The position numbers and the translations under genes are program-made. A stretch of 24,201 bases of DNA, from the IMG/VR virus record IMGVR_UViG_2778261666_000010. One strand, 5' to 3'. Below, in pieces: positions 3,034-24,201 of the stretch (positions are counted from its first letter, which is position 1; every line of letters starts with the position of its first letter). The stretch is from a virus (lineage: Duplodnaviria > Heunggongvirae > Uroviricota > Caudoviricetes). Under the pieces are notes generated by a model that had not been told where the DNA came from, ran no database searches, and worked only from the letters and a program-made list of their open reading frames with translations.

Positions 3034-3611
3034 TGCGGGCCTCCTGTCGAATCGCTGCCGCCTTTCACGCCACCGTGTTTATGCGTATGCACGGTAATGC
3101 CGTTTGAGGTGAAGTTGCCGCCGCTGTGCGTGATATTGCCGCTCATCTTTCCTCCTTTTGTGACGTCAAGCGTCGCCGTTCTCAGAAGGTTTGTGCATTC
3201 CACGACGGGCGTATCCAGTTTCACGCTGACGGATGCCTGTAAAGTGGCCGTTTTCATGCCGCTGGCGCTCAGTGCGCCTGCGTCCGCGTCGTAGCGGAAC
3301 ACCGCGCCGTCCGGCGCGCTGATCACGATTTCTTTCAGGCTTTTGCCGGGTGCCGGATTGGCATCACTCCACAGGCTGCCAATTATCATGGCGGTTTCCG
3401 GGTTGCCGCCAATGCAGGCAATTACCACCTGTTCGCCTGGTGATGGCGGCAGCCACACATTGAAGGCTCCCGCGCGCGTGGTGTTCCAGCGCAACCAGCC
3501 TGTTTCCAGTTCGCCGCTGCGAACGCGCACGCGCCAGGACTTCTCATCAACTTCAGAGATGATCCCGGTGCGGATGATATTGCTCAGCAGTCGCATGAGT
3601 TCTGCGCTCAC
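3030..3611 (-). CDS. V: Baseplate spike/hub protein (P2 gpV-like)
   Basis: 193 aa with NIIRTGIISEV... and C-terminal HTHKHGG apex motif typical of gpV spikes. GTG start at 3611 has GGAGG upstream and overlaps the upstream stop. Confidence 0.85.
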   Translation of the reverse strand: MSAELMRLLSNIIRTGIISEVDEKSWRVRVRSGELETGWLRWNTTRAGAFNVWLPPSPGEQVVIACIGGNPETAMIIGSLWSDANPAPGKSLKEIVISAPDGAVFRYDADAGALSASGMKTATLQASVSVKLDTPVVECTNLLRTATLDVTKGGKMSGNITHSGGNFTSNGITVHTHKHGGVKGGSDSTGGPQ

Positions 3612-4252
3612 CGTACAGCCTCCGCAATCCGGCCCAGCACCGTGTTATAAATCAGGCGCTCATCTGCCTGGCTGATACCCAGCAGCTCACGTACCGGGTA
3701 ATCGGTGAAAATGCCCGGCGCAACCTGATCGCGCTCACCGAACTGATGAACGCGGGCAATACGTGCGGCCACGCCGCTGTAACCCACCGTCACACCGGAA
3801 GCATCTGCACGGGCTTTCAGGTAGCGGGCGGTGCGCAGTTTTACGAACATGGGGACGCGCTTTGTGCTGTCCTGGTTGATGCGCCGGGTGCGTATTTCCA
3901 GAAAACGGTCGATATCATCCCGGTAAAACGTGCGGATATTATTTTTATCCTCATCCCACCCGGTAATGGTTCGCCCGTATTTCCCCGTGTCGTGATGCCA
4001 GTTTTTCAGCGTGCGTGCTTCGTTATTCCAGATAAAGCGAATGCGTTCCTGTATCCGGGTTACGCGGCGTCTGCGTGGTGTCCACGCGGTCCCGTCCGGC
4101 GCTTTCTGTGACCGGATACGCGCCTGCTGGGCGCGGCGTAAATCCTGTGCCAGCTTTCTGGCGATGTTATTAATGGCCTGCTGATTCAGGCTGTCGCGGA
4201 TGGCCTCAAAGGTTTCATCCACGCGGGTGAATGCCTTATCCATCGCTTTCAC
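3608..4252 (-). CDS. S: Tail completion / virion morphogenesis protein (P2 gpS position)
   Basis: 214-aa ORF between R and V in P2 order. Start is ambiguous: GTG 4252 or ATG 4243. Longer than the ~150 aa I recall for P2 S. Confidence 0.65.
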   Translation of the reverse strand: MKAMDKAFTRVDETFEAIRDSLNQQAINNIARKLAQDLRRAQQARIRSQKAPDGTAWTPRRRRVTRIQERIRFIWNNEARTLKNWHHDTGKYGRTITGWDEDKNNIRTFYRDDIDRFLEIRTRRINQDSTKRVPMFVKLRTARYLKARADASGVTVGYSGVAARIARVHQFGERDQVAPGIFTDYPVRELLGISQADERLIYNTVLGRIAEAVR

Positions 4253-4703
4253 CCCACGTCACATCCTGGAATACATGCGACCAGTCGCCTTCGGAAGATG
4301 GCAGGCGGGGTTTTGGCTCCGGCAGGTGTTCTGCCTGCGGCGTGCCCTGACTGCTGCGCGTGATGCGAACGCGTTCCCGCAGAGGGAGCGTAAACAGGAG
4401 ATCGGCGCTGTCATCGTCATTGATAACGGCGGAGAATTTGATGTCCTGATTACGCTCCGGATTGAGCAACAACTGTGGCTGATTTTCTGATAACCACGCC
4501 AGTAGCGGCAGCGTGAGGTCGTCCAGCTCCCCGGCGTAATCCATGACAAACATCACCATCTGATAGCGGTAAACAAACGAGGGCGTTTCTCCGGTCGTTT
4601 CAATGTTGCCGCTCTCCACGAAAATGGTGAATTTTTCCGGGTTGGCCTGACACCATCGGCATGAACGGGTCATGGCTTCACGCAGGGAATCAGTTTTCAG
4701 CAT
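4236..4703 (-). CDS. R: Tail completion protein (P2 gpR-like)
   Basis: 155 aa, the length I recall for P2 R; ATG at 4703; directly downstream of the lysis genes. Confidence 0.75.
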   Translation of the reverse strand: MLKTDSLREAMTRSCRWCQANPEKFTIFVESGNIETTGETPSFVYRYQMVMFVMDYAGELDDLTLPLLAWLSENQPQLLLNPERNQDIKFSAVINDDDSADLLFTLPLRERVRITRSSQGTPQAEHLPEPKPRLPSSEGDWSHVFQDVTWGESDG

Positions 4704-9669: not shown

Positions 9670-11421
9670 ATGATTCAGGACGCTTTTGTGCGCCAGCGTG
9701 CGCGACAACTTTACTGGCAGGGTTATCCGCCCGCTGAAATATCACGTCTGATGGGAATAAACCCGAACACGATTTATGCGTGGAAAAAACGCGACCAGTG
9801 GGATGAAACGCCACCCGTGCAGCGTGTCACGCAGTCCATCGATGCGCGCCTCATCCAGCTTACTGAAAAACAGAATAAAACAGGCGGTGACTTTAAGGAA
9901 ATAGACCTGCTGACCCGGCAGCTTAAAAAACTGCATGATGGCCAGCCGGATGCGACGGCCACAGGAAAGAAAGGCCGGGCGAAAAAACTCAAAAATCATT
10001 TCACGCCGGAACAGATTGCCGCACTGCGGGAAAAAATCATCAGCAGGCTGGAGTGGCATCAGCGGGGCTGGTTTGACTCCCTGACCCTTTGCAGGGAAGC
10101 CGGGATACGTAACAGGATGATCCTGAAATCCCGACAGATTGGGGCGACCTGGTATTTTGCACAGGAAGCACTGCTGATGGCGCTGCGTGACGATGTGGCG
10201 CAACCTTACCAGCGTAACCAGATTTTTTTGTCTGCGTCGCGTCGTCAGGCGTTCCAGTTTAAAAGCATTATTCAGAAGGCCGCGGCTGAAGTTGATGTGG
10301 AGCTGAAAGGGGGCGATAAAATCATCCTCTCCAACGGCGCAGAGCTGCATTTTCTCGGCACTTCTGCTGCGTCGGCACAGTCCTATACGGGCAATTTTTA
10401 TTTTGATGAATTTTTCTGGGTCAGTCGCTTTGCTGAACTGCGCAAGGTGGCTGGCGCTATGGCAACCCTCAGCGGACTGCGGCGCACCTACTTCTCCACG
10501 CCATCCACCGAAACGCACGAGGCATACGCCTACTGGAACGGCGACCGCTGGAATGAGAAAAAGGCCTCGCATAAACGCCAGCGTTTTTCTGTGGACTGGA
10601 AAACGCTGCATAACGGGCTTATCTGCCCTGACCGGACGTGGCGGCAAATTGTCACGCTGGAAGATGTGGTTAATCACGGCTGGAAACACACTGATATCGA
10701 CGAAATTCGTGATGAAAACACCGAAGACGAGTTCCTCAATCTCTATATGTGTGAGTTTGTCCGCGAAGGGGAATCGGCATTTAACCTGAATATCCTGATT
10801 GGCTGCGGTGTTGACGGATACGACGACTGGAAAGACTGGAAACCTTTTGCTCCCCGCCCGATGGGGAATCGTCCGGTATGGATTGGGTATGACGCAAACG
10901 GCAGTAGTGGCAACGGCGACAGCGGCGCTGTGTCCGTGGTGGTTCCTCCGGCTGTTCCTGGTGGCCGTTTTCGAACGGTGGAGACGCGACGCGTTCAGGG
11001 GCTGGAGTTTGAAGAACAGGCCAGAGTCATTGAAGAGTTCACGTATCGCTACAACGTGGAACACATCGGCATTGATGTGACGGGCGGGAACGGGGAGGCT
11101 GTTTATCAGATAGTGAAACGGTTTTTCCCTGCTGCTATTCCGTACACCTTCACGCTGTCATCAAAACGGTCGCTGGTACTGAAAATGCTGCAAATAATGC
11201 GTGCCGGGCGGTGGGAATACGATCGCGCCGAACGCGAGCTGGTCGCGGCCTTTAACGCCGTGCGTAAGGTGAAAACACCGGGCGGCTTTATCACTTACGA
11301 AACGGACCGCGCGAGGGGGATCAGCCACGGCGACCTTGCGTGGGCAACCATGCTTGCTGTCATTAACGAACCGATTGGCGGCGAAGGAGAAAACGAGCGT
11401 TTCACGGTTATGGAGTTCTGA
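9670..11421 (+). CDS. P: Terminase large (ATPase) subunit (P2 gpP-like)
   Basis: 583 aa; ATG 9670 preceded by GGGGGAG; N-terminal HTH-like segment (YWQGYPPAEISRLMGINPNTIYAWKKRDQWDE); stop overlaps the portal start. Confidence 0.9.
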   Translation: MIQDAFVRQRARQLYWQGYPPAEISRLMGINPNTIYAWKKRDQWDETPPVQRVTQSIDARLIQLTEKQNKTGGDFKEIDLLTRQLKKLHDGQPDATATGKKGRAKKLKNHFTPEQIAALREKIISRLEWHQRGWFDSLTLCREAGIRNRMILKSRQIGATWYFAQEALLMALRDDVAQPYQRNQIFLSASRRQAFQFKSIIQKAAAEVDVELKGGDKIILSNGAELHFLGTSAASAQSYTGNFYFDEFFWVSRFAELRKVAGAMATLSGLRRTYFSTPSTETHEAYAYWNGDRWNEKKASHKRQRFSVDWKTLHNGLICPDRTWRQIVTLEDVVNHGWKHTDIDEIRDENTEDEFLNLYMCEFVREGESAFNLNILIGCGVDGYDDWKDWKPFAPRPMGNRPVWIGYDANGSSGNGDSGAVSVVVPPAVPGGRFRTVETRRVQGLEFEEQARVIEEFTYRYNVEHIGIDVTGGNGEAVYQIVKRFFPAAIPYTFTLSSKRSLVLKMLQIMRAGRWEYDRAERELVAAFNAVRKVKTPGGFITYETDRARGISHGDLAWATMLAVINEPIGGEGENERFTVMEF

Positions 11422-12467
11422 TGAGCAGAAAAAACAAAAAAGTGCGCATGAGTTCACGCATTGATCTCGCTGATGCGCTCAGGAAAGAATCATCGCTCAG
11501 TGCATTCACATTTGATGGTCCTTATCGCCTGACCGGGCATGACCTGCTGGACAATATGTACTGTGCTGATAACGGGCGGTGGTATGAAACCCCGGTGGAC
11601 TGGTACGGTCTGGCAAGAGCAGCCCGGCAAACGTCCTGGCATCAGTCTGCGCTTTACTTTAAGCGTAATGTATTGCTCGGTTGCTATATTCCGCACCCGC
11701 TGCTTTCCCGGCAGGATTTCTCGGCGCTGGCGCTGGACTGGTTTGTGTTCGGTAACGCATTCCTTGAGCTTCGAAGCAATATGCTCGGCGAACCACTTAA
11801 ATTACGGCACACCCTGGCGAAATACATGCGACGCGGAAGCGATCTTGAATCATGGTGGTATGTGCAGGATGGCAAGGACGCGTTTCAGTTTCGCCCTGGC
11901 AAAGTGTGCCACCTGATGAATCCTGACATTAACCAGGAAATCTACGGCATGCCGGAATATCTCGGCGCATTACTCTCGGCCAGCCTGTCTCATTCGGCGG
12001 ACATGTTCAGAAAACTGTATTACGACAACGGCTCCCACGCCGGGTGCATCATCTACATCGGTGCAGCGCAGGTAAACCGCGAAAGCATGGACTCCCTGAA
12101 GGAAACGCTACAGGGTGCGCGTGGTGGTGGTGCATTTAAAAACGTGCTCATTCATGCGCCCAACGGGGGCAAAGAGGGGGTGCAAATTTTGCCGTTCCAG
12201 CAGATCACCGCAAAGGATGAGTTCATGAATGTTAAGGCGGCATCCCGTGATGATGTGCTGGCTGCGCACCGCGTTCCGCCGCAACTGATGGGGGCGATGC
12301 CGGGCGAAAAAAGTGCGTTTGGCGATGTGGAGAAGGCAGCGCGGGTTTACGCAATTAACGAGCTGATGCCCGTCATGGAGGCTATGAAGCACATCAATGA
12401 CTGGCTTGGCGAAGAGGTGATCCGTTTTAACTCTTATGCTCTTCTTGATGAAAAAACAGCCCCGTGA
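11421..12467 (+). CDS. Q: Portal protein (P2 gpQ-like)
   Basis: 348 aa, close to the 344 aa I recall for P2 Q; immediately downstream of the terminase, as in P2. Confidence 0.9.
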   Translation: MSRKNKKVRMSSRIDLADALRKESSLSAFTFDGPYRLTGHDLLDNMYCADNGRWYETPVDWYGLARAARQTSWHQSALYFKRNVLLGCYIPHPLLSRQDFSALALDWFVFGNAFLELRSNMLGEPLKLRHTLAKYMRRGSDLESWWYVQDGKDAFQFRPGKVCHLMNPDINQEIYGMPEYLGALLSASLSHSADMFRKLYYDNGSHAGCIIYIGAAQVNRESMDSLKETLQGARGGGAFKNVLIHAPNGGKEGVQILPFQQITAKDEFMNVKAASRDDVLAAHRVPPQLMGAMPGEKSAFGDVEKAARVYAINELMPVMEAMKHINDWLGEEVIRFNSYALLDEKTAP

Positions 12468-12483
12468 TGGGGCTGTCCTTTTT
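12456..12483. terminator. Bidirectional intrinsic terminator shared by convergent portal (plus) and orf174a (minus)
   Basis: 8-bp stem ACAGCCCC/GGGGCTGT (12456-12463 / 12469-12476) with loop GTGAT. Followed by a T-run on the plus strand (CCTTTTTA) and preceded by an A-run, giving a U-tract on the minus strand too. The portal stop lies in the loop; the orf174a stop lies in the T-run. Confidence 0.65.
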
Positions 12484-13006
12484 ACCAGAGTTGAACCATT
12501 TTCTGGGTGCCGTCAGGCTTGAGATTATCAATTTCAGAGAGAACGTAATATTGAATGGCTTCACAAACGGTGGTGTAGGGTGAATTACCTTCTTTAAGTG
12601 GCACGATATTATTATTAACGCGAACCTGTATTTCATCGTTATACATTGCGATCGAAACAGGAGTGTGCACGAACGCGACTTCGCCAGGTGTGTCGTCAAC
12701 CACCGTTTCAATACTAAAAGTCAGTTTTCGCTCATCATTGCTGCCCCGTGCTTTGGGGGTAGCGGCAGGGATCTGGGATAAAGGCATTCTGCGAAATCCT
12801 TCGGCTGCTTCCAGTCCGCATGAAACGTAATGCTGGCGATTACCGTCGCTATCTGTCCAGGTCTGTGATGGCAGCTCCAGCGAGATTTCATAAGCATCAA
12901 CAATGCCCTGGGCAAGGCGTACAAGCGGGGTCAGATCTTCATTGCGGCGAAAGCTCTCCTTTACCTGCTCCCGTTTTTCTCTTAACTGCTTGTAATTAAT
13001 GACCAT
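12482..13006 (-). CDS. Hypothetical protein (174 aa), accessory gene next to the portal
   Basis: Track start 13045 is GTG; ATG 13006 has a perfect GGAGG 7 nt upstream (MVINYKQLREKREQ...). Ends at the shared terminator. No motif I recognise. Visibly more AT-rich than the flanking structural genes. Confidence 0.6.
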   Translation of the reverse strand: MVINYKQLREKREQVKESFRRNEDLTPLVRLAQGIVDAYEISLELPSQTWTDSDGNRQHYVSCGLEAAEGFRRMPLSQIPAATPKARGSNDERKLTFSIETVVDDTPGEVAFVHTPVSIAMYNDEIQVRVNNNIVPLKEGNSPYTTVCEAIQYYVLSEIDNLKPDGTQKMVQLW

Positions 13007-13108
13007 AAAACAGCCTCCATTGATTTCTTTGCTCGTATTTTGCACTTATGAAGTATGGTCGGCAAGGTGCCGTATCGCTGACGCGCTTCGCTTGTCTGCT
13101 GCTTCGCC

Positions 13109-13131
13109 GGGGCATAAAAAATTTATGCCCC
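13109..13131. other. Perfect 10-bp-arm palindrome/hairpin
   Basis: GGGGCATAAA-AAA-TTTATGCCCC, about 100 bp upstream of the orf174a start; no flanking U-tract on either strand. Confidence 0.4.
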
Positions 13132-13505
13132 GACTCTCCAGCTCCTGTATCAATCAGATAATTTCACGACGCCTTCCAGCTTATTGTCATCATCGACGGT
13201 CAGGCTCTTACGCAATCCCGCCGTGCTGACTGCATGTTCTCGTCGCCTCAGTGCGATTTTGACGGCCTTATCAGTCACCCCATCAAATCAAAAGCCCTCA
13301 CGTATTTTTCACGCTCAGCGTGAGAAAGACAGCCATTCTGTTGTGTCGCTGCGACATCGTTCAGGGAATGCTATTTACCCCCTGAAACGCGGGCTGTTCC
13401 CCCGTCACCTGCGCGCAGAAAAAACGCGTTTTTTTGTGCACGCACGGATCCTTGACGGATCCAGCCGCCACGGGGGCCGGAAGGGCAAAAAGTCGTTCAA
13501 AAAAA

Positions 13506-13532
13506 TTGTGCAAATTTGTGCACTATTGTGCA
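13506..13532. repeat. Three TTGTGCA direct repeats at exact 10-bp phasing
   Basis: aTTGTGCAaatTTGTGCActaTTGTGCAgc, copies starting at 13506, 13516 and 13526 in non-coding DNA; helical-phase iterons suggest a protein-binding array. Confidence 0.5.
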
Positions 13533-13572
13533 GCAGGGCGATGCGCGATTATCGCCTTGGTTTGAGAGGAAA

Positions 13573-14097
13573 TCAGGTGTTCTTTTTACCTTCTGTCAGT
13601 GGGCATAACCATCCACTATTTACATCACTTAGCTGATGCGTTCTTTCCTCGTGCTTCTCCTGCCACAATGCTTTTCCGCCAGCCTTTATGATGGCTCTTT
13701 CAACATCCCGCTCGTATCGCAAGGGCTGAAATACGTTATTAATGAAATATTCGCTTATGTCCGGAAGCAATACTGCAAAATTATTGGTTTGTTGCGCCGT
13801 TCGGCTATGCAGCAAAGCGGCATACTTTAATGCGTCCTGTGCTTTCTGGAATTTCAGTGCATGGTCAGTGGCGATTTTTTCCAGTTCAGCGATCCTGTTG
13901 TCTTTGGTTTCCAGCTCTTCCAGCAGCTCGGCGATAATGTCCATTTCCTGATGACGGATTTGACGCTTAAACGCCGCCACTGCTTCGCTACAATCCTGCT
14001 CAGCATTTGGGTTATCCGTGATGGCCTCATACCACGCCAGCGTCGATTGATAGTTTTGTGCTGCCTCACGTAATGCCTGATAGTTGATTTCGCTCAT
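13573..14097 (-). CDS. Hypothetical protein (174 aa), predicted alpha-helical/coiled-coil, downstream of parR
   Basis: ATG 14097 with AAGGAG upstream; a hairpin (14135-14152, CAGGGCGAACTCGCCCTG) separates it from parR; no recognisable motif. Confidence 0.6.
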   Translation of the reverse strand: MSEINYQALREAAQNYQSTLAWYEAITDNPNAEQDCSEAVAAFKRQIRHQEMDIIAELLEELETKDNRIAELEKIATDHALKFQKAQDALKYAALLHSRTAQQTNNFAVLLPDISEYFINNVFQPLRYERDVERAIIKAGGKALWQEKHEERTHQLSDVNSGWLCPLTEGKKNT

Positions 14098-14160
14098 TAT
14101 GTCGTTCTCCTTGTTTATGTTCTGAGGTGGAGAGCAGGGCGAACTCGCCCTGATGTTGTG

Positions 14161-14472
14161 TTATTCAGGAAATAACGCCCTGATATTTCTGGCCATCTGA
14201 CTGGTTATCTGTGCGGTTGGTACTGGCTGTGACTCGGGGCGTTCTGTCCTGGTTTGTGTCACTGATAACGTCTCATCGTCAGCCCATGCAGCCAGTCGGT
14301 AAGCCTCTGCCGGATTCATTTTCAGAAGTGCCAGCCCGGCCAGAAAAGCCACGCGTTGGCCGCTTTTGCGAGCTTCTGGTGTAAGGCTGTCCAGCCAGGC
14401 GCATGCTTCACCTTCGTTCTTGACGGCGGCGGGTTTCAGATAGAAACTTATCCGTCTGGTTGGTGTCGTCAT
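14161..14472 (-). CDS. parR: ParR-like centromere-binding adaptor (partition protein)
   Basis: Start moved to ATG 14472 (MTTPTRRISFYLKPAAVKNEGEACAWLDSLTPEARKSGQRVAFLAGLALLKMNP...), with AAGGAG upstream and overlapping the parM stop. Resembles the N-terminal ribbon-helix-helix region of plasmid R1 ParR (...RTIAFKLNPD...LDSIP...RAALTAGLALY...) from memory. The track's 45-residue N-terminal extension overlaps parM. Confidence 0.65.
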   Translation of the reverse strand: MTTPTRRISFYLKPAAVKNEGEACAWLDSLTPEARKSGQRVAFLAGLALLKMNPAEAYRLAAWADDETLSVTQTRTERPESQPVPTAQITSQMARNIRALFPE

Positions 14473-14476
14473 TGGT

Positions 14477-15436
14477 TTACTCCTTGTCCATTGCGTACAG
14501 CCCATTAACCAGAGCAAACTGTGGCACCCCGTCCGCGATGAAAGTCGCATTAACTCCGCAGGCTTCGCGGATAGCGGGTGCCACAATCTCCGCCCCGCCA
14601 CCGACAACCATCACCCGCCCGTAACCCGAAAAACCCGCCAGCGCGCGGATCACGCGTTGTTTCAGTGTTTCTTCCTTTTCACGAATAACCGCCATCAGGC
14701 TGGCGTAATGCGCGTCATTGTGGATGTGCTGGCGCAGCCAGGCTTCATCATGGCGATGTTCGATAATGGTATTGGCGATGTGGTGACTGGTACGCATACC
14801 GTTAGTGGCCATCACCGACAGTACGGCATCGGCCATCAGGGAAACGCCTACGTGTGGATCGCAAAACACCTGGCTGATACCTGCCAGTTGTCCCTGAACC
14901 TTTGCCACATCCAGCGTGGTTCCGCCCAAATCCACAATCAGCAGGGATTCAAACGGACTCATGTCAGCCAGTGCCTTAAAGCCAGCCGGAATGGATTCAG
15001 GCATAACCCGTACATTACGGATAGTGAATGCCTTACCGTTCTGGTACTCCACCGGGCGCATGACGTTCGCTTTTTTGCGGTTGATGTTGGCCATGTCCGG
15101 CTGTGCGTTTGTGTCGAAATACTCGCTCAGTGGCAGGGTGACAACCACATCCACTTCCTGTGGTGTGATGCCTGATTTGACCAGCGCGTGATGAATGGCA
15201 ATTACATTCACATCGCTGTACTGGTATTGCGTGTCGGTCGTCTGGACAAAGCGATCGCTGACCGGATCAAAACCATAGCGCACGCCATCAAGCATGTAGT
15301 TCGCGGGCTGCATGCCACCGAACGGCGCAGACCATTCCGATTTGAAGCTGTTCGGGCTGATGGCGTTGCGGCGTTCGCCGTTCTCAGTCCATGCCAGCTT
15401 GATGTTGGTGGAGCCGTCGTCGATACAAATTTTCAT
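14477..15436 (-). CDS. parM: ParM/StbA-like actin-type segregation ATPase
   Basis: 319 aa, collinear with plasmid R1 ParM as I recall it (MKICIDDGSTNIKLAW..ISPNSFK..YSDVNV..HHAL..RKKAN..VMPESIPAG..DLGGTTLD..GVSL..GGGAEIV..LVNG), including phosphate-1, phosphate-2 and adenosine motifs of the actin fold. Confidence 0.85.
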   Translation of the reverse strand: MKICIDDGSTNIKLAWTENGERRNAISPNSFKSEWSAPFGGMQPANYMLDGVRYGFDPVSDRFVQTTDTQYQYSDVNVIAIHHALVKSGITPQEVDVVVTLPLSEYFDTNAQPDMANINRKKANVMRPVEYQNGKAFTIRNVRVMPESIPAGFKALADMSPFESLLIVDLGGTTLDVAKVQGQLAGISQVFCDPHVGVSLMADAVLSVMATNGMRTSHHIANTIIEHRHDEAWLRQHIHNDAHYASLMAVIREKEETLKQRVIRALAGFSGYGRVMVVGGGAEIVAPAIREACGVNATFIADGVPQFALVNGLYAMDKE

Positions 15437-15468
15437 GTCGATTTTCCTTATATTGATTAATTAATCGG

Positions 15469-15580
15469 TTACGGGATTTTTAAATCCCGCTTTTGCCTGT
15501 TTTGTGCGCGCTTCATATTTCGCGGCGCTTTTTTTGCTCATTTACGGGATTTGTGAATCCCGTTTCTGTCTGTTTTTTGT
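15469..15580. repeat. Two ~38-bp direct repeats, each with an internal hairpin and T-rich tail, straddling the gene A stop and the parM upstream region
   Basis: Copy A 15469-15506 (TTACGGGATTTTTAAATCCCGCTTTTGCCTGTTTTGTG) and copy B 15542-15580 (TTACGGGATTTGTGAATCCCGTTTCTGTCTGTTTTTTGT); copy B lies inside the last ~23 codons of gene A. Confidence 0.6.
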
Positions 15581-18335
15581 TCCCACGGGTCAGGCCACCC
15601 CGCAGCAGGTCTGCTTTGCGGTGGGCGCGTTCAGTGGTTTCACTGATTCTCTGTGCGTGCTCTGCGTCACGGATGGCGCGCAGCATGTCAGAAAGCACGG
15701 TAACGGGTGTCTTCATGGTGTTCTGGTCTTGCTGAAGTGTGGATGCCAGGCGTGCGGCGGCTTCGGGGTCTGATGCCCCTAGCTGTTCCAGATAGCTGGC
15801 GACCGGGTTATGGCGGATCTCCGTGCTGCTTACGCCGTGATTACGGCTCAGGCGCTGCCAGAGCTGCGTGATTCGGCTGTCCGGTCGGGTATCTGGTTTG
15901 CGTACAATTTCAAATCCCTGCGGTGCAATGATGCTGCCGTCAACGTACAGACTGCCGCCCCGTAACAGGTGCAGCATCTGTTGTTCACCGATATGCAGGC
16001 CGAGAGATTCGGCAGACTCCCGCCATTCTTTAGCGAGTAACTCGTGGTTATCAGGCAAAGGTCGCGGCTGTTTGCGGCTCTGTGTCCAGTTCTGCATTTC
16101 ATCGCTGCTGTTTTTTGCCTGTTTGTCACGAAGCGAACGCATCAGCGCCCGGCGTTCGTGCCGTTTCAGTGAGCGCATCCATTCATTTACTTCAACGCCG
16201 TCAGGAAGCTGCGGCCACGGTGCTGGCCGTTCTTCCGGCTGTTCTGTTCCGTTGTTGTTCGTTTCCTGTACACGGGGACAGTTATTGCCACGAGTCCAAG
16301 GGGCGGCAGGGCCGCCCTGAAGGTCAAAACCATTTTCGCGGGCGCTGTCTTCCGCTTCCGGTTTACGCCTTACCAGCTTCCAGTTATCCGGGTGCGTGCA
16401 CACGCGGGAAGACTCCCCGATGAGCGGCGACCAGATCCCGTAAATCTGTACACTCTGCTCGCCGTAATCGTTCAGTTCATCTGCGAGGTCGTAGGCGGTG
16501 CGAATCAGGTAGTCTTTACGTGGAACAAGTACGCCGCCCTGTTTTTCAATGTAGGAGGCAAAACACCCGGCATCGGCGGCAGCGAGTACCGCATCCATTG
16601 CGTCATCCTTCAGCCGTTGCGGGCCTTCCGGGTTGCGTGCCATCTGGCTGGCAAGGCGGCGCAGTTCACGCCACACCTGACGGGAGGGGATGCCAAAGAA
16701 CTGGAACTGGCGGACCCGATGAAGGCGCGCCCAGCCGATGGCGCGCTCCACGCTCTCGGCCATTGATTTTCCGGTTTCGTGGTCAACGCGTGGTTTGCCC
16801 GTTTTCGGGTCGATTCCATCCACGGCGCGGCTGTCCAGGTTTTTTCCGATGTAGGTGGCGATGTAGCTGGTTGGCGTGCCTTTGGAGCCGTCGACGTACT
16901 CCACCTTAAAGCGCGGAGTAATATCATTGCCCAGCTCGTGGCGGTCTTCCTGAATGGCAATATCGCGGGTGATGGCCACGATGCTGTCGATTTCTTCTGG
17001 ATGAGCAAAGACCATCATATGCCAGTGCACGGTGCCGTCATGGTGAGGCTCCACCGTGCGGATGCCATACCAGCGCAGGCCGTCGCGGTTCAGTTTCTTG
17101 CGGACCGCCGCAAAAAACGTGTTAACCAGGTAATCGCTGGAGTCGCGCATGGTGGCCCCGTTCCATTTGGGATTCGGATGACCGTTCTCTGTTGTGGCGT
17201 GGTATTTTGACGGGCAGGTGACAGTCAGAAACACCGCTTTGTCGCCACGGGCTTCGGCTAGAAGTTCCAGCCCCTTCATGGTGGCCATCATTTCTGCCTT
17301 ACGGTGAACCGGGTTACTTACTCCCGCGTAATACACTGTCTCAAGATCAATCGTGAAGCCGTCTTCGTTTTCCAGTTCGAAGCTCTTCAGGAAGTCGCGG
17401 GTTTTCTCGCGCTGTGCGCGAAACTCGCTTAACGCGTCCTGGCTCAGATAGGGTGATGTTTTTCTGGAAACCAGACAGGCGGCACGGAGCTGTTCTTCCC
17501 GCCACTCGCAACGTAAAAGCCACAGTTTGTGTTTCCACCATTCCGCACAGGTCAGGCGAAGGATGGCACCCGGCAGCAGCTCCGTATTCAGTGCGTTCTT
17601 CCGGTCTTTGTCCGTTCTCAGTGCTTCGTAATGCGGCGGCATGGTGTGCAGATGTAACGCCATGCGGGCCAGCATCTGATACGCCTTCAGCGCAATTTTC
17701 ATGGTCAGCTCGCCATCGGTCGCGCCAAAGTTATCGCAGAGTGTTTCGAAAGTGCTGCTGAACATCGCCGCCGTCATGGTGGCCAGCGTCTGTATCTGGT
17801 GTTTGTTGAGCTGCGGCAGGTAAAGCAAATCGTCCAGGCGTTCGCGTCCGGCAAGGGAGCAATAACACGGTGTCAGCCAGCGTCCGTCAGTGCGATCCAG
17901 ACGTTCGAATATTTTGCGCAGGGTTCCGCGTGCATAGCGTTCCGCCTGCCAGCTCTTTTTGCCTTTCCGGCGATCGGCTTCCTGTTTTTTGCGCAGGAAG
18001 GAGAGGTGGCGAATAAGCGGATCGCGCAGATAGGACGGCAGCAGGCGGAGCGAGGCCATGGCTTCATCCACCGCGCCGCGTGCCTGTTTTCTGGCGTCTC
18101 CTGTCAGTGTGATGGTTTTGTCCTGTTTTTCCTGTGCGTCCAGGCTTTTATTAATCAGGTTGCCCAGCGGCGTGGCGGAGAACGCCGCATCAGCCATTTC
18201 CTGGCGGCGCTCGTTCTCTGCCCGGTAGGCATCCAGCCAGGAGGAAAGCGCGGATTCAGGAGCGGGGATCCCCGTTCCTTCACGCCCCACTGCGTGGCGC
18301 GGTTGTTGCCAGTCCCTGATGTACTCTGCCGTCAT
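15513..18335 (-). CDS. A: Replication initiation endonuclease (P2 gpA-like, rolling-circle HUH family)
   Basis: 940 aa, ATG 18335; metal-binding motif EPHHDGTVHWHMMVF and downstream tyrosine region (...TSYIATYIGKN...). Longer than the ~761 aa I recall for P2 A. Confidence 0.85.
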   Translation of the reverse strand: MTAEYIRDWQQPRHAVGREGTGIPAPESALSSWLDAYRAENERRQEMADAAFSATPLGNLINKSLDAQEKQDKTITLTGDARKQARGAVDEAMASLRLLPSYLRDPLIRHLSFLRKKQEADRRKGKKSWQAERYARGTLRKIFERLDRTDGRWLTPCYCSLAGRERLDDLLYLPQLNKHQIQTLATMTAAMFSSTFETLCDNFGATDGELTMKIALKAYQMLARMALHLHTMPPHYEALRTDKDRKNALNTELLPGAILRLTCAEWWKHKLWLLRCEWREEQLRAACLVSRKTSPYLSQDALSEFRAQREKTRDFLKSFELENEDGFTIDLETVYYAGVSNPVHRKAEMMATMKGLELLAEARGDKAVFLTVTCPSKYHATTENGHPNPKWNGATMRDSSDYLVNTFFAAVRKKLNRDGLRWYGIRTVEPHHDGTVHWHMMVFAHPEEIDSIVAITRDIAIQEDRHELGNDITPRFKVEYVDGSKGTPTSYIATYIGKNLDSRAVDGIDPKTGKPRVDHETGKSMAESVERAIGWARLHRVRQFQFFGIPSRQVWRELRRLASQMARNPEGPQRLKDDAMDAVLAAADAGCFASYIEKQGGVLVPRKDYLIRTAYDLADELNDYGEQSVQIYGIWSPLIGESSRVCTHPDNWKLVRRKPEAEDSARENGFDLQGGPAAPWTRGNNCPRVQETNNNGTEQPEERPAPWPQLPDGVEVNEWMRSLKRHERRALMRSLRDKQAKNSSDEMQNWTQSRKQPRPLPDNHELLAKEWRESAESLGLHIGEQQMLHLLRGGSLYVDGSIIAPQGFEIVRKPDTRPDSRITQLWQRLSRNHGVSSTEIRHNPVASYLEQLGASDPEAAARLASTLQQDQNTMKTPVTVLSDMLRAIRDAEHAQRISETTERAHRKADLLRGGLTRGNKKQTETGFTNPVNEQKKRREI

Positions 18336-18341
18336 AGTGAT

Positions 18342-18707
18342 TTACTTCGTCATGCCATTCAGGGTGTCGCGGCAGACGGCAGCCAGCCGCTGAATTTCCA
18401 GCACGGTGTCTTCTGTGTCGGCATGGCGATGTGTGATGCGGATGCTGTCGGCAATCACATCGACGATTGCAGAGGATGGGCGCTGGTAAATGCCAATAAC
18501 GGACGGGGTGCCGCCTTCAATGCGGTAAAGCCTGTAATTTCCCTCGTGGCTGTCAATCATGTAGCGACCATCAATAACAATCTTTCCGTCAGCGAGCTGC
18601 GGTACAGGCAGGGATTTCAGGTACATGTCATAACGTTCACGCACGCGAACGGCAAGATCACGCTCTGTGTTGAGCAGGTATTCAAGAAAGTCGTTGGCGA
18701 GAATCAT
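18342..18707 (-). CDS. Hypothetical early protein (121 aa)
   Basis: ATG 18707 with AGAGGA upstream; ends 7 nt before gene A; position of the small P2 orfs preceding A. Confidence 0.55.
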   Translation of the reverse strand: MILANDFLEYLLNTERDLAVRVRERYDMYLKSLPVPQLADGKIVIDGRYMIDSHEGNYRLYRIEGGTPSVIGIYQRPSSAIVDVIADSIRITHRHADTEDTVLEIQRLAAVCRDTLNGMTK

Positions 18708-18779
18708 TGCGGCAATCCTCTTGTTACAGATGTGCGAAGGCCTCCCGCCGCAAGGTGCAGGAAAGGCCCGGAACAGGAA

Positions 18780-19010
18780 TTAATGGAGTTTGTTTTGCTG
18801 CTCGATGAGCTGCTGAAGCTCGCGCAGATCATCCGCCAGATAGCTAAATACTGCGGCGGAGTAGGCGTTTGACAGCACGTGGCTGTGCTCATGTGACATG
18901 TTGATGAACATGATACGAGCGACGCGTGATGCGCGGTAAAGTCTGCGGTTGATTTCAGTCTGGATGTGACGACGCGCAGCGTATGCGCGCTGTTGTTTGC
19001 GGTTTGCCAT
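18780..19010 (-). CDS. Hypothetical early protein (76 aa)
   Basis: ATG 19010 with AGAGG upstream; first gene after the 320-bp structured non-coding region. Confidence 0.5.
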   Translation of the reverse strand: MANRKQQRAYAARRHIQTEINRRLYRASRVARIMFINMSHEHSHVLSNAYSAAVFSYLADDLRELQQLIEQQNKLH

Positions 19011-19188
19011 GGTGTGGCCTCTTTGCTAGTAAGTTTTAAAAACTCACCATCCAGAGGTGGAAAACTCGGGGTGGTGAGACGTACAGGGTTTCCACAACCG
19101 GCTAGCAAAGAACCCGGCCCGACCGAAGTCGGCCCCATACGCCCCACCATAATTCGTGTGCGAAAAAGACGTGGCGATACGGTACGCA

Positions 19189-19210
19189 CAAAAAAACCGC
19201 TGGCGCGGTT
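19189..19210 (-). terminator. Candidate intrinsic terminator (minus strand) inside the early region
   Basis: Minus-strand RNA would read AACCGC-GCCA-GCGGUU followed by UUUUUU; short GC stem, moderate strength. Confidence 0.4.
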
Positions 19211-19330
19211 GTGCGCTTTGCTAGTCAGCGGGGTGGAAATCCCGGCACCCGTTTTATGAGGTGCAGCGGAAATGTAACCTGACTGATTGCGGCATGGCAA
19301 GCGGTTTTTTTGTGTGTGCATGATGATTAC

Positions 19331-22693: not shown

Positions 22694-22752
22694 TTGTTAT
22701 CCTCTTGCGTTGGTGCGCTTGTCGCGCCTTGTGATGGTTTGTTTTGGCTTGT

Positions 22753-22808
22753 AAAGATAATCAAACGGTTATCTTTGTGCGAGAGGTTAATACTCAAATG
22801 GTTATCTT
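22753..22808. promoter_or_regulatory. Candidate operator elements of the immunity switch
   Basis: Perfect inverted repeat AAAGATAA-N8-TTATCTTT (22753-22776), plus a 9-bp direct repeat GGTTATCTT at 22767 and 22800 (33 bp apart), the second overlapping the repressor start codon. Confidence 0.45.
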
Positions 22809-23139
22809 GTCAATAGACTATGCAAAAAAGTTACGTCAGATACGTAAGGCGGAAGGGTTAACACAAAAGCAGTTTGCGGATATTACTGGGTTGTCTTTGG
22901 CAACCATAAGGAATTACGAATCGGGGCAAAAGAACGCTAGAGCAAAAATCGTTGAGGCGGTTCTGCAAGTCGATCGCTTTGAAAAATACATGCTGTGGCT
23001 AATAAAAGATAAGACGCTACCTGTCGCCGGGCAGATTGCTCCGGCTCTCTCTCTTGATGGATCTATTCAGTCGGAGGGCGATCAGGTTTCAATCGGTATT
23101 ACCCAAAAATCACCCCGATCAGGCCGCAATGTTGGCTGA
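22798..23139 (+). CDS. Immunity repressor (P2 C / lambda CI-type, HTH_XRE)
   Basis: Start placed at ATG 22798 (MVILSIDYAKKLRQIRKAEGLTQKQFADITGLSLATIRNYESGQ...), a classic XRE HTH; upstream of and co-oriented with int, as in P2 C-int. The track's earlier start 22744 remains possible. Confidence 0.7.
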   Translation: MVILSIDYAKKLRQIRKAEGLTQKQFADITGLSLATIRNYESGQKNARAKIVEAVLQVDRFEKYMLWLIKDKTLPVAGQIAPALSLDGSIQSEGDQVSIGITQKSPRSGRNVG

Positions 23140-23208
23140 CTCTACACATTGAGCGAATTACATATCGCAAGGAGTGTTTAGTTAATTTATCCGTTGGAGG
23201 GGCTAATC

Positions 23209-24201
23209 ATGTCGATTAAGCAACTCAAAGACGGACGTTATCAGGTCGATGTCAGACCGCAGGGGGCGGAAGGAAAGCGGATTCGAAAAATCTTTGCCCT
23301 GAAATCAAAGGCTCAGGAGTTTGAGAAGTATGTGTTACAGAACTTTCATGACAAGCCATGGCAGGCTAAGCCAGCTGATCAGCGGCGATTATCAGAGCTG
23401 CTTGACGCGTGGTGGATGCTTGATGGGCGTAATCAGGCTTACGGGGATAGCTACAGGGTTAGGCTAGGGAAGGTTGTTCGTGAAATGGGAGATCCTCGCG
23501 CCAGTCAGATGACGCGAAAATTTATGCTTGAATATCGGTCAGAGAAATTACAGGCCGGATTAATGCCGTCCAGTATTAATCGTGACTTATGCGTACTGTC
23601 TACCATGTTCACGGTGCTGATTGAAGCTGAGGTCTTTCACAACGCGAACCCTGTACGCGGTATACGAAAACTGAAAGTTCAGAACACAGAGATGGCCTTT
23701 CTTTCTGATGATGAGATTGAACGGCTTCTTGAGCGACTGGAGGGTGATGCGCGTCGTGTTGCCATTCTGTGTCTTTCTACTGGTGCCCGATGGAGTGAAG
23801 CATCGGAACTACGTGGAGAGCATATCGTTGGCAACCGGGTGACGTTCTTTAACACCAAAAACGGAAAATCCCGTTCGGTTCCTGTGGCGGATTCGGTCGT
23901 GCCTCTGATTAAAACCCGTCGAACGGGGTTATTGTATCAGGTTGATTATCTGAAGTTCCGGGAGATTCTTCAGGAGGTGAAACCGGATTTGCCGAAGGGG
24001 CAGGCTACGCATGTCATGCGTCATACGTTTGCCACACACTTTATGATGAATGGCGGAAATATTGTTACGTTGCAACGAATCCTGGGGCACGCAACGATTC
24101 AGCAAACAATGACGTACGCTCATTTTTCGCCGGACTTTTTACAGGACGCGATCAACTTTAATCCGCTGGCTGAAAGTGTCCATAAACTGTCCATCGATTA
24201 G
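23209..24201 (+). CDS. int: Tyrosine integrase (P2 Int-like)
   Basis: ATG 23209 preceded by GGAGG; C-terminal catalytic region ...HVMRHTFATHFMMNGGNIVTLQRILGHATIQQTMTYAHF... with the R/H/Y signature; stop is the last codon of the window, so attL/attR should lie just beyond it. Confidence 0.9.
   Translation: MSIKQLKDGRYQVDVRPQGAEGKRIRKIFALKSKAQEFEKYVLQNFHDKPWQAKPADQRRLSELLDAWWMLDGRNQAYGDSYRVRLGKVVREMGDPRASQMTRKFMLEYRSEKLQAGLMPSSINRDLCVLSTMFTVLIEAEVFHNANPVRGIRKLKVQNTEMAFLSDDEIERLLERLEGDARRVAILCLSTGARWSEASELRGEHIVGNRVTFFNTKNGKSRSVPVADSVVPLIKTRRTGLLYQVDYLKFREILQEVKPDLPKGQATHVMRHTFATHFMMNGGNIVTLQRILGHATIQQTMTYAHFSPDFLQDAINFNPLAESVHKLSID

Follow-up and report, generated by a model that had tools for sequence, protein, structure and literature searches.

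What unites the genes that lie between the replication gene A and the portal gene Q of a P2-like phage, beside its cos site? This interval is known as the gpA-gpQ hotspot of P2-like phages, which was defined by Rousset et al. in 2022 (PMC9122126), is also treated in PMC13586616 and was re-examined in a 2026 study. We address the question for positions 12482-15512 of a 24,201-nucleotide stretch of DNA (hereafter the window, to which unprefixed coordinates refer), the caudoviricete record IMGVR_UViG_2778261666_000010 of IMG/VR. On its closest DNA matches (Escherichia phage P88, P88_4B11, PhiR44_2, Citrobacter phage phiSM and similar records, at 93-98% identity) the window can be assigned to a P88-like P2-family phage of the genus Xuanwuvirus, family Peduoviridae, and the interval is the cos-proximal end of the phage genome. 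An earlier note, made from the sequence alone, had read the interval as a single accessory island, composed of two unrecognised 174-residue proteins, structured non-coding DNA and an actin-type partition module, ParMR. We find instead that it is a composite of four independent parts: ParMR, the cos region, and two cargo slots on either side of cos.

We investigated the distribution of each part among 5426 complete Escherichia coli genomes. Matches to parMR were found in 1307 genomes, the 566-bp non-coding stretch that holds cos in 1146, the first 174-residue gene (orf1) in 397, and the second (an Ead/Ea22-like gene), in the allele of the window and at full length, in 23. The parts have very different genome counts, indicating that the interval is not one island. 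Only the two 174-residue genes are swappable cargo, in separate slots flanking cos. When the locus was aligned against its relatives, the orf1 and Ead slots varied among closely related prophages, and parMR and the cos region were conserved across the lineage. The two cargo genes are AT-richer than their neighbours (G+C contents of 0.474 for orf1 and 0.469 for the Ead/Ea22-like gene, about 47%, versus 0.53-0.58, or 53-58%, for Q, P, parM and A), and their behaviour as exchanged cargo agrees with the horizontal acquisition that the earlier note had proposed for them. The note had also correctly recognised the locus as the cos-proximal hotspot, flanked by Q and gpA, and the absence of old and tin from it; both cargo genes have the position of hotspot cargo, between gpA and gpQ and beside cos. 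Its statement that no known defence system is present was likewise borne out, as the PADLOC models gave no meaningful match (none for orf1, ParR or ParM, and for the Ead-like protein only coiled-coil-type matches at E about 0.005-0.007). The partition module, in turn, was rightly named as actin-type and wrongly counted as variable cargo, being lineage-typical and attached to gene A.

For ParM, we identified matches to PF06406 (5.6e-82) and PF21523 (1.3e-68), and a full-length alignment to the ParM of plasmid R1 (PDB 1mwk, 2.2e-92) in which the motifs DDGSTNIK, PESIPAG, DLGGTTLD and GGGAE are conserved. The gene has close relatives among plasmid parM genes, and its ratio of nonsynonymous to synonymous polymorphism (pN/pS), about 0.09, indicates purifying selection. 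The adaptor gene parR starts 4 nt past the parM stop codon, and its product scored 87.5 bits against PF10784 (cut-off 25) and aligned end to end with the ParR of an IncL/M plasmid, an N-terminal R(R/K)xSFY strand and a C-terminal N(I/V)xxLFP(E/D) tail being common to both. The module therefore shares with ParMRC of R1 and NR1 (stbA/stbB) a full-length ParM homology with conserved nucleotide-binding motifs, the order of repeats, parM and parR, and a PF10784 adaptor with the conserved N-terminal strand and LFP(E/D) tail. It differs in lying directly after gene A of an integrating P2-family phage, with no recognisable promoter of its own; in its short ParR (103 residues), which occurs as mosaic alleles of about 50-98% identity beside a near-invariant ParM; and in its candidate centromere, which consists of two 38-nt units with 19-bp palindromes, in contrast to the roughly ten direct iterons of R1.

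Across at least 40 related loci, identity was 97-100% for ParM, 82-98% for gpA and about 50-98% for ParR. The mosaic ParR alleles (93-98%, 85% and about 50% identity) stand beside ParM sequences that are 97-100% identical (loci L016, L018, L040, L042 and L043). The allele breakpoint lies inside parR, the variable part being the C-terminal two thirds (14161-14417 in the window); the N-terminal 17 residues are invariant among the alleles, all of which retain the N-terminal MTTPTRRISFYLKPAAV and a C-terminal NIxx(L/F)FPE. In 566 of the 1307 parMR-matching genomes, the high-identity alignment was limited to parM and the 5' part of parR. A few relatives have lost or replaced parMR, and the module is therefore ancestral to the lineage, with occasional replacement; in the loci compared it is typical of P88-like phages and stays attached to gene A. 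In one of the exceptions (L027, positions 3453-4401; also L012 and L017) parM is cut after 16 codons and a pair comprising a Doc-like toxin and a Phd/YefM-like antitoxin takes the place of parMR, with both palindromes upstream of it still in place.

A possible parC lies upstream of parM, in the form of two 38-nt repeat units. Each contains the palindrome ACGGGATTTnTnAATCCCG (at 15471-15489 and 15544-15562), for which four matches were counted over both strands, that is two sites, versus 0.03 expected by chance, and no other repeat family was seen in or around the par module. In 15 loci carrying all the ParR alleles, the palindrome arms were mostly conserved, apart from a few single-base changes. 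Both palindromes are moreover kept in a locus in which the upstream gene differs (L033). This conservation together with the par module makes the 38-nt units the best candidate for parC, although the assignment is not secure. The distal unit also encodes the last 16 codons of gene A (TGFTNPVNEQKKRREI, 15513-15562), and the C-terminal tail of gpA and the candidate centromere thus share sequence. In the IncL/M plasmid, the stretch upstream of parM (L058, 1302-1472) carries direct repeats that recur every 10 bp and are grouped into blocks 72-73 bp apart; the 73-bp spacing common to these blocks and to the phage units may be a coincidence.

Several observations speak against a centromere at this site. 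The candidate has two sites only and no iteron array, whereas R1 and the IncL/M relative both use direct-repeat arrays (at the 10-bp period in the latter case), the sequence changes in the palindromes are not compensatory, and both palindromes resemble plus-strand terminators. The palindromes might thus be no centromere at all, and could instead serve as a tandem pair of plus-strand terminators, which would keep late P-Q transcription from running antisense into gene A, or as hairpins in the mRNA, with parC located elsewhere or absent. Both do score as terminator-like, with T-rich tails, and the T-rich tail is included in the 38-nt repeat unit; in addition, the related plasmid ParR proteins go with direct-repeat arrays and not with palindromes. 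We nonetheless consider this explanation unlikely, given that the palindromes stay with the par module also where another gene lies upstream, that the module offers no other repeat family, and that the N-terminal strand of ParR and most positions of the palindrome arms are both invariant across the alleles.

If the 38-nt units are indeed parC, what would the module act upon? Our scan identified neither a consensus promoter nor a minus-strand terminator between A and parM, suggesting that parMR is read through from the early operon via gene A. Of the 1455 places at which parMR was found in the complete E. coli genomes, 1453 were chromosomal, and an integrase is present; the likely substrate is therefore a transient extrachromosomal circle, and one complete P88-like genome is on record as a circle of 34.5 kb. 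We propose that the early operon transcript would continue through gene A into parMR, that ParR would bind the two 38-nt units, and that ParM filaments would push or position extrachromosomal phage circles after infection or excision. The benefit would be inheritance before integration, or else an ordered replication like that attributed to AlpAC in CGP3; we do not propose a stable plasmid lysogeny. Taken as a whole, the explanation of the locus as a composite, with ParMR acting on a transient circle, a cos region, an Ead-type modulator and orf1 as a moron, is the one that we favour, and we regard it as moderately probable.

A functional precedent is the AlpAC system of the Corynebacterium prophage CGP3 (Donovan et al. 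2015; PMC4446434): it is switched on early, and without it the excised circle does not replicate efficiently. In both cases an actin-like ATPase and a DNA-binding adaptor are encoded by a chromosomally integrated prophage. However, there is no demonstrated sequence relationship between the two systems, the ParM studied here being a close R1-type protein.

Two considerations weigh against a role on the transient circle. Lysogens could express parMR from a weak internal promoter, and the presence of Phd/Doc in place of parMR, together with hok/gef in a related genome, fits plasmid-style maintenance better than a purely lytic role. ParMR could accordingly make the P88-like phages facultative plasmid prophages (phage-plasmids), stably partitioning an unintegrated prophage during lysogeny, as was suggested by Rousset et al. 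(PMC9122126). The close relationship between parM and plasmid parM genes is consistent with this, as is one complete circular P88-like genome of 34.5 kb that was deposited as a plasmid. We judge this reading improbable all the same: all but two of the parMR places are chromosomal, the integrase and repressor are intact, the sole replication function seen is a rolling-circle initiator of the gpA type, and the one circular record may stem from a replicative form that had been excised when the DNA was assembled. That record (L051, NZ_CP148288.1) is a 34,461-bp circular E. coli plasmid entry comprising the integrase, repressor, gpA, parMR, structural genes and hok/gef; it reflects either an episome or such a captured replicative form.

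For the gene in the slot between parR and cos, which the earlier note had regarded as unrecognised, we identified a match to Pfam Ead_Ea22 (PF13935) over residues 2-116, with 58.4 bits against a cut-off of 27 (1.5e-15). The family alignment is mosaic: three stretches are conserved (an N-terminal motif, a coiled-coil segment and a small unit at the C-terminus), and a variable insert separates the first two. The monomer model from AlphaFold2 (AF2), which is poor (mean predicted local distance difference test score, pLDDT, of 54), contains helices at residues 6-26 and 33-103 (the latter of about 70 residues), a small alpha/beta unit at 108-145 and a disordered tail. Lambda Ea22 is an early, pro-lysogenic protein that forms a tetramer and whose C-terminal domain is variable among homologues (PMC10834534). 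The protein of the window shares with it the Pfam match and a three-part architecture, consisting of a conserved N-terminal MSxI(N/D)YQAL motif, a long helix in the middle and a small domain at the C-terminus. It differs in that its gene ends a P2-type early operon, rather than lying in a lambdoid exo-xis region, and in that no sequence match links its C-terminal domain to the solved one of lambda Ea22.

The Ead-like gene is the last in the minus-strand direction of the early operon, and has no promoter by our scan. From its family and this position, an early developmental or host-modulating role appears the most economical reading: expressed early, the coiled-coil protein would, like lambda Ea22, modulate host physiology or the choice between lysis and lysogeny. 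Two results count against this reading. A phmmer search of all PDB chains, at E values up to 10, returned nothing for the protein, the lambda Ea22 C-terminal domain included; and in E. coli Q5, the closest complete genome (L001, 4273-4796), the gene is annotated as a frameshifted pseudogene with an internal stop. The slot itself is hypervariable: in 32 loci we counted at least 15 arrangements, with 856 to 2321 nt separating the parM end from cos. Among its alternative occupants are further Ead variants, ClpX zinc-finger proteins, a pair of IrrE/HTH and PIN proteins, and ASCH and Mom-like proteins.

On the other side of cos, orf1 forms part of a precisely bounded cassette that is inserted relative to P88. 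The cassette replaces the last eight codons of Q, so that the C-terminus of Q differs from that of P88 from 12443 onwards, and it brings with it a bidirectional terminator hairpin, orf1 itself and, upstream of the gene, 71 nt that contain a GGAGG ribosome-binding site. In prophages without orf1, the end of the portal gene is joined directly to approximately 13074-13078. The Orf1 protein is identical to WP_000236495 and matches PHROG 5091, and is soluble and acidic (pI 5.0). It is under purifying selection, with a pN/pS of about 0.09. For this protein the earlier description as unrecognised holds: we found no Pfam, NCBIfam or PADLOC match for orf1, and searches of 41 members of its family against Pfam, and of NCBIfam, also returned no family. 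A profile search retrieved 88 cluster representatives of the family, nearly all of 155-185 residues. The AF2 model (pLDDT 77, predicted template-modelling score 0.71) begins with two helices, continues in an antiparallel sheet and ends in a further helix. Of the searches that the note had recommended, a profile match named the family of the second 174-residue protein, and the fold searches for orf1 gave no convincing match.

A scan of genome contigs for the orf1 family detected two loci only. We identified an orf1 homologue in Trabulsiella directly after gpA, and remote homologues between the antiterminator Q and the holin of a lambdoid prophage, within the tail module of an E217-like prophage, and adjoining the portal of a Morganella P2-like prophage. 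Like phage morons, orf1 is present or absent as an insertion with sharp boundaries, carries its own terminator and deviates in composition (G+C 0.474), and its homologues occupy classical moron sites in other prophages. It departs from them in its candidate promoter, which is only a weak consensus match. We suggest, with low confidence, that orf1, as a member of the prophage-restricted PHROG 5091, would bind a protein partner and so take part in conflicts between phages or between phage and host. Against this stand the promoter scan, in which no site upstream of orf1 reached the threshold (the best by eye being TTGCCG-17-CAAAAT, which agrees at 8 of 12 positions), and the structural model, in which we found no convincing fold or domain match pointing to any activity. 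A resemblance of Orf1 to actin-capping proteins was considered as a link to ParM, and was rejected, as orf1 occurs without parMR and in prophages with no parM nearby.

It is also conceivable that orf1, the Ead-like gene, or both, are lysogen-expressed single-gene anti-phage defences of a new type, like other validated cargo of the hotspot. The recurrence of orf1 at moron sites of other prophages and its purifying selection would be expected of such genes. We hold this to be doubtful, however, since neither protein has a PADLOC match, a nuclease, NTPase or transmembrane feature, or a sensor-effector architecture; the Ead-like gene, lacking a promoter of its own by scan, points with the early operon, and lambda Ea22 is a developmental modulator and not a defence protein. 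An anti-defence role would fit the data equally well. Two bolder readings can be offered tentatively. One is that a minimal two-site ParMRC segregates or positions unintegrated P88-like circles, either as facultative episomes (pseudolysogens or phage-plasmids) or in an actin-driven layout of replication and packaging. The other is that PHROG 5091 is a new single-gene conflict effector, for defence or anti-defence, that moves between the moron sites of unrelated temperate phages.

Finally, for the 566-bp gap between orf1 and the Ead/Ea22-like gene (13007-13572), we identified no open reading frame under coding selection. The earlier note had listed this structured non-coding DNA as a component of the island; it appears instead, on its conservation, to be the essential cos packaging region. 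Positions 13078-13532 are about 91-95% identical among P88-like phage records, and the spacer that opens this stretch is mostly 90-95% identical in E. coli genomes, and its hairpin is the ancestral one that follows Q in P88. A 42-residue open reading frame within the spacer (13150-13278, minus strand), which is annotated as a hypothetical protein in P88, P88_4B11 and PhiR44_2, was rejected as a gene, its variable sites being spread 16/20/15 by codon position, with in-frame stops in two alleles.

The core that follows (13388-13532) is the only part of the gap that can be aligned with Enterobacter phage phiT5282H, at 75% identity, and the two ends of the linear P88_4B11 record, as deposited, meet within it, at 13487/13488. 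An invariant block (13391-13409) matches the P2 cos 19-mer at 13/19 positions, in the same orientation relative to Q, a score that is equalled by chance elsewhere in the window; a BLAST search of the P2 cos junction against the gap returned chance matches of 8-9 nt only. The TTGTGCA motifs flank the presumed cut and are conserved in phiT5282H, and may form a binding site for terminase or an accessory protein. They overlap a minus-strand terminator-like hairpin (13523-13508), which would end the early operon. No Rfam match was found in 12300-15700 at E <= 1. That the whole 3-kb block is nevertheless a single co-acquired island of four cooperating genes, for example a new defence or maintenance system, is highly improbable, for although the four genes are contiguous, on one strand and in a known defence hotspot, their distributions are independent, the essential cos site sits in mid-block, orf1 is present in prophages without parMR (L012, L017 and L027) and in unrelated prophage types with no parM nearby, and many alternative genes fill the Ead slot beside the same parM.

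The coordinates of the features are collected in the table below. The four open reading frames of the interval, all on the minus strand, lie where the earlier note had placed them, and the rest of the window has a P2/186-type layout, with a minus-strand early operon that runs from about 22693 down to gene A.

Table. Features of the P88-like window in and around the interval between Q and A.
Feature	Position	Strand	Remarks
Portal gene Q	11421-12467	+	PF04860, phrog_68; flanking context
orf1 moron cassette	12443-13077		635-bp insertion relative to P88; P88 homology stops at 12442 and resumes at 13078
Bidirectional terminator-like hairpin	12451-12481		Inverted repeat between convergent Q and orf1; terminator-like site 12456-12476 with T tail
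orf1	12482-13006	-	174 aa from ATG, 187 aa from upstream GTG
Conserved non-coding spacer of P88-like phages	13078-13387		Holds hairpin 13107-13131 and a spurious 42-aa open reading frame
cos packaging core	13388-13532		Conserved beyond P88-like phages; presumed cut within
Three TTGTGCA repeats	13506-13532	+	Exact 10-bp spacing; fourth copy at 13434
Ead/Ea22-like gene	13573-14097	-	174 aa; PF13935
parR (StbB-type adaptor)	14161-14472	-	103 aa from ATG; PF10784 5.2e-25, phrog_2515
parM (actin-like ATPase)	14477-15436	-	319 aa; PF06406 and PF21523
Two 38-nt repeat units	15469-15579		73 bp apart; candidate parC centromere or ParR operator
gpA replication initiator	15513-18335	-	940 aa; PF05840 2.9e-129, phrog_91; flanking context
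Repressor	22744-23139		Divergent from early operon
Integrase	23194-24201		Beyond repressor

Within the early operon we noted two Rfam matches at gathering level on the minus strand (19067-19264), namely the C4 antisense RNA (RF01695, 19067-19154, 78.8 bits) and isrK (RF01394, 19190-19264, 63.8 bits). Both fall inside an open reading frame (18704-19321) whose PHROG matches are regulator- or repressor-like, and a minus-strand terminator-like hairpin (19210-19195) lies inside the isrK match. This stretch looks like a c4-antirepressor module of the P1 immI type within a P2-type early operon.

The locus and its gene content have already been catalogued, and do not constitute a new kind of system. 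Rousset et al. reported a putative partition system in "around a fourth of P2-like phages", and their table lists both the present arrangement and the present Orf1 protein (PMC9122126). The locus, its flanking genes and the partition system are the same in their account and in ours; the present instance differs in holding no recognised defence system, and the present analysis in separating the conserved par module from cos and from the two slots that flank it. We found no functional study of ParMR, orf1 or the Ead-like protein in P2-like phages in the literature. The meaning of the locus lies in the presence of an R1-type actin segregation pair in an integrating phage, and in about a quarter of complete E. 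coli genomes (1307/5426). Given the candidate centromere, the limits of the cassettes and the structure of the alleles, the role of ParMR can be tested directly. Similarly, the orf1 family has no domain or fold match, is under purifying selection and occupies the moron sites of several phage types, and is therefore a reasonable candidate for defence and anti-defence screening.

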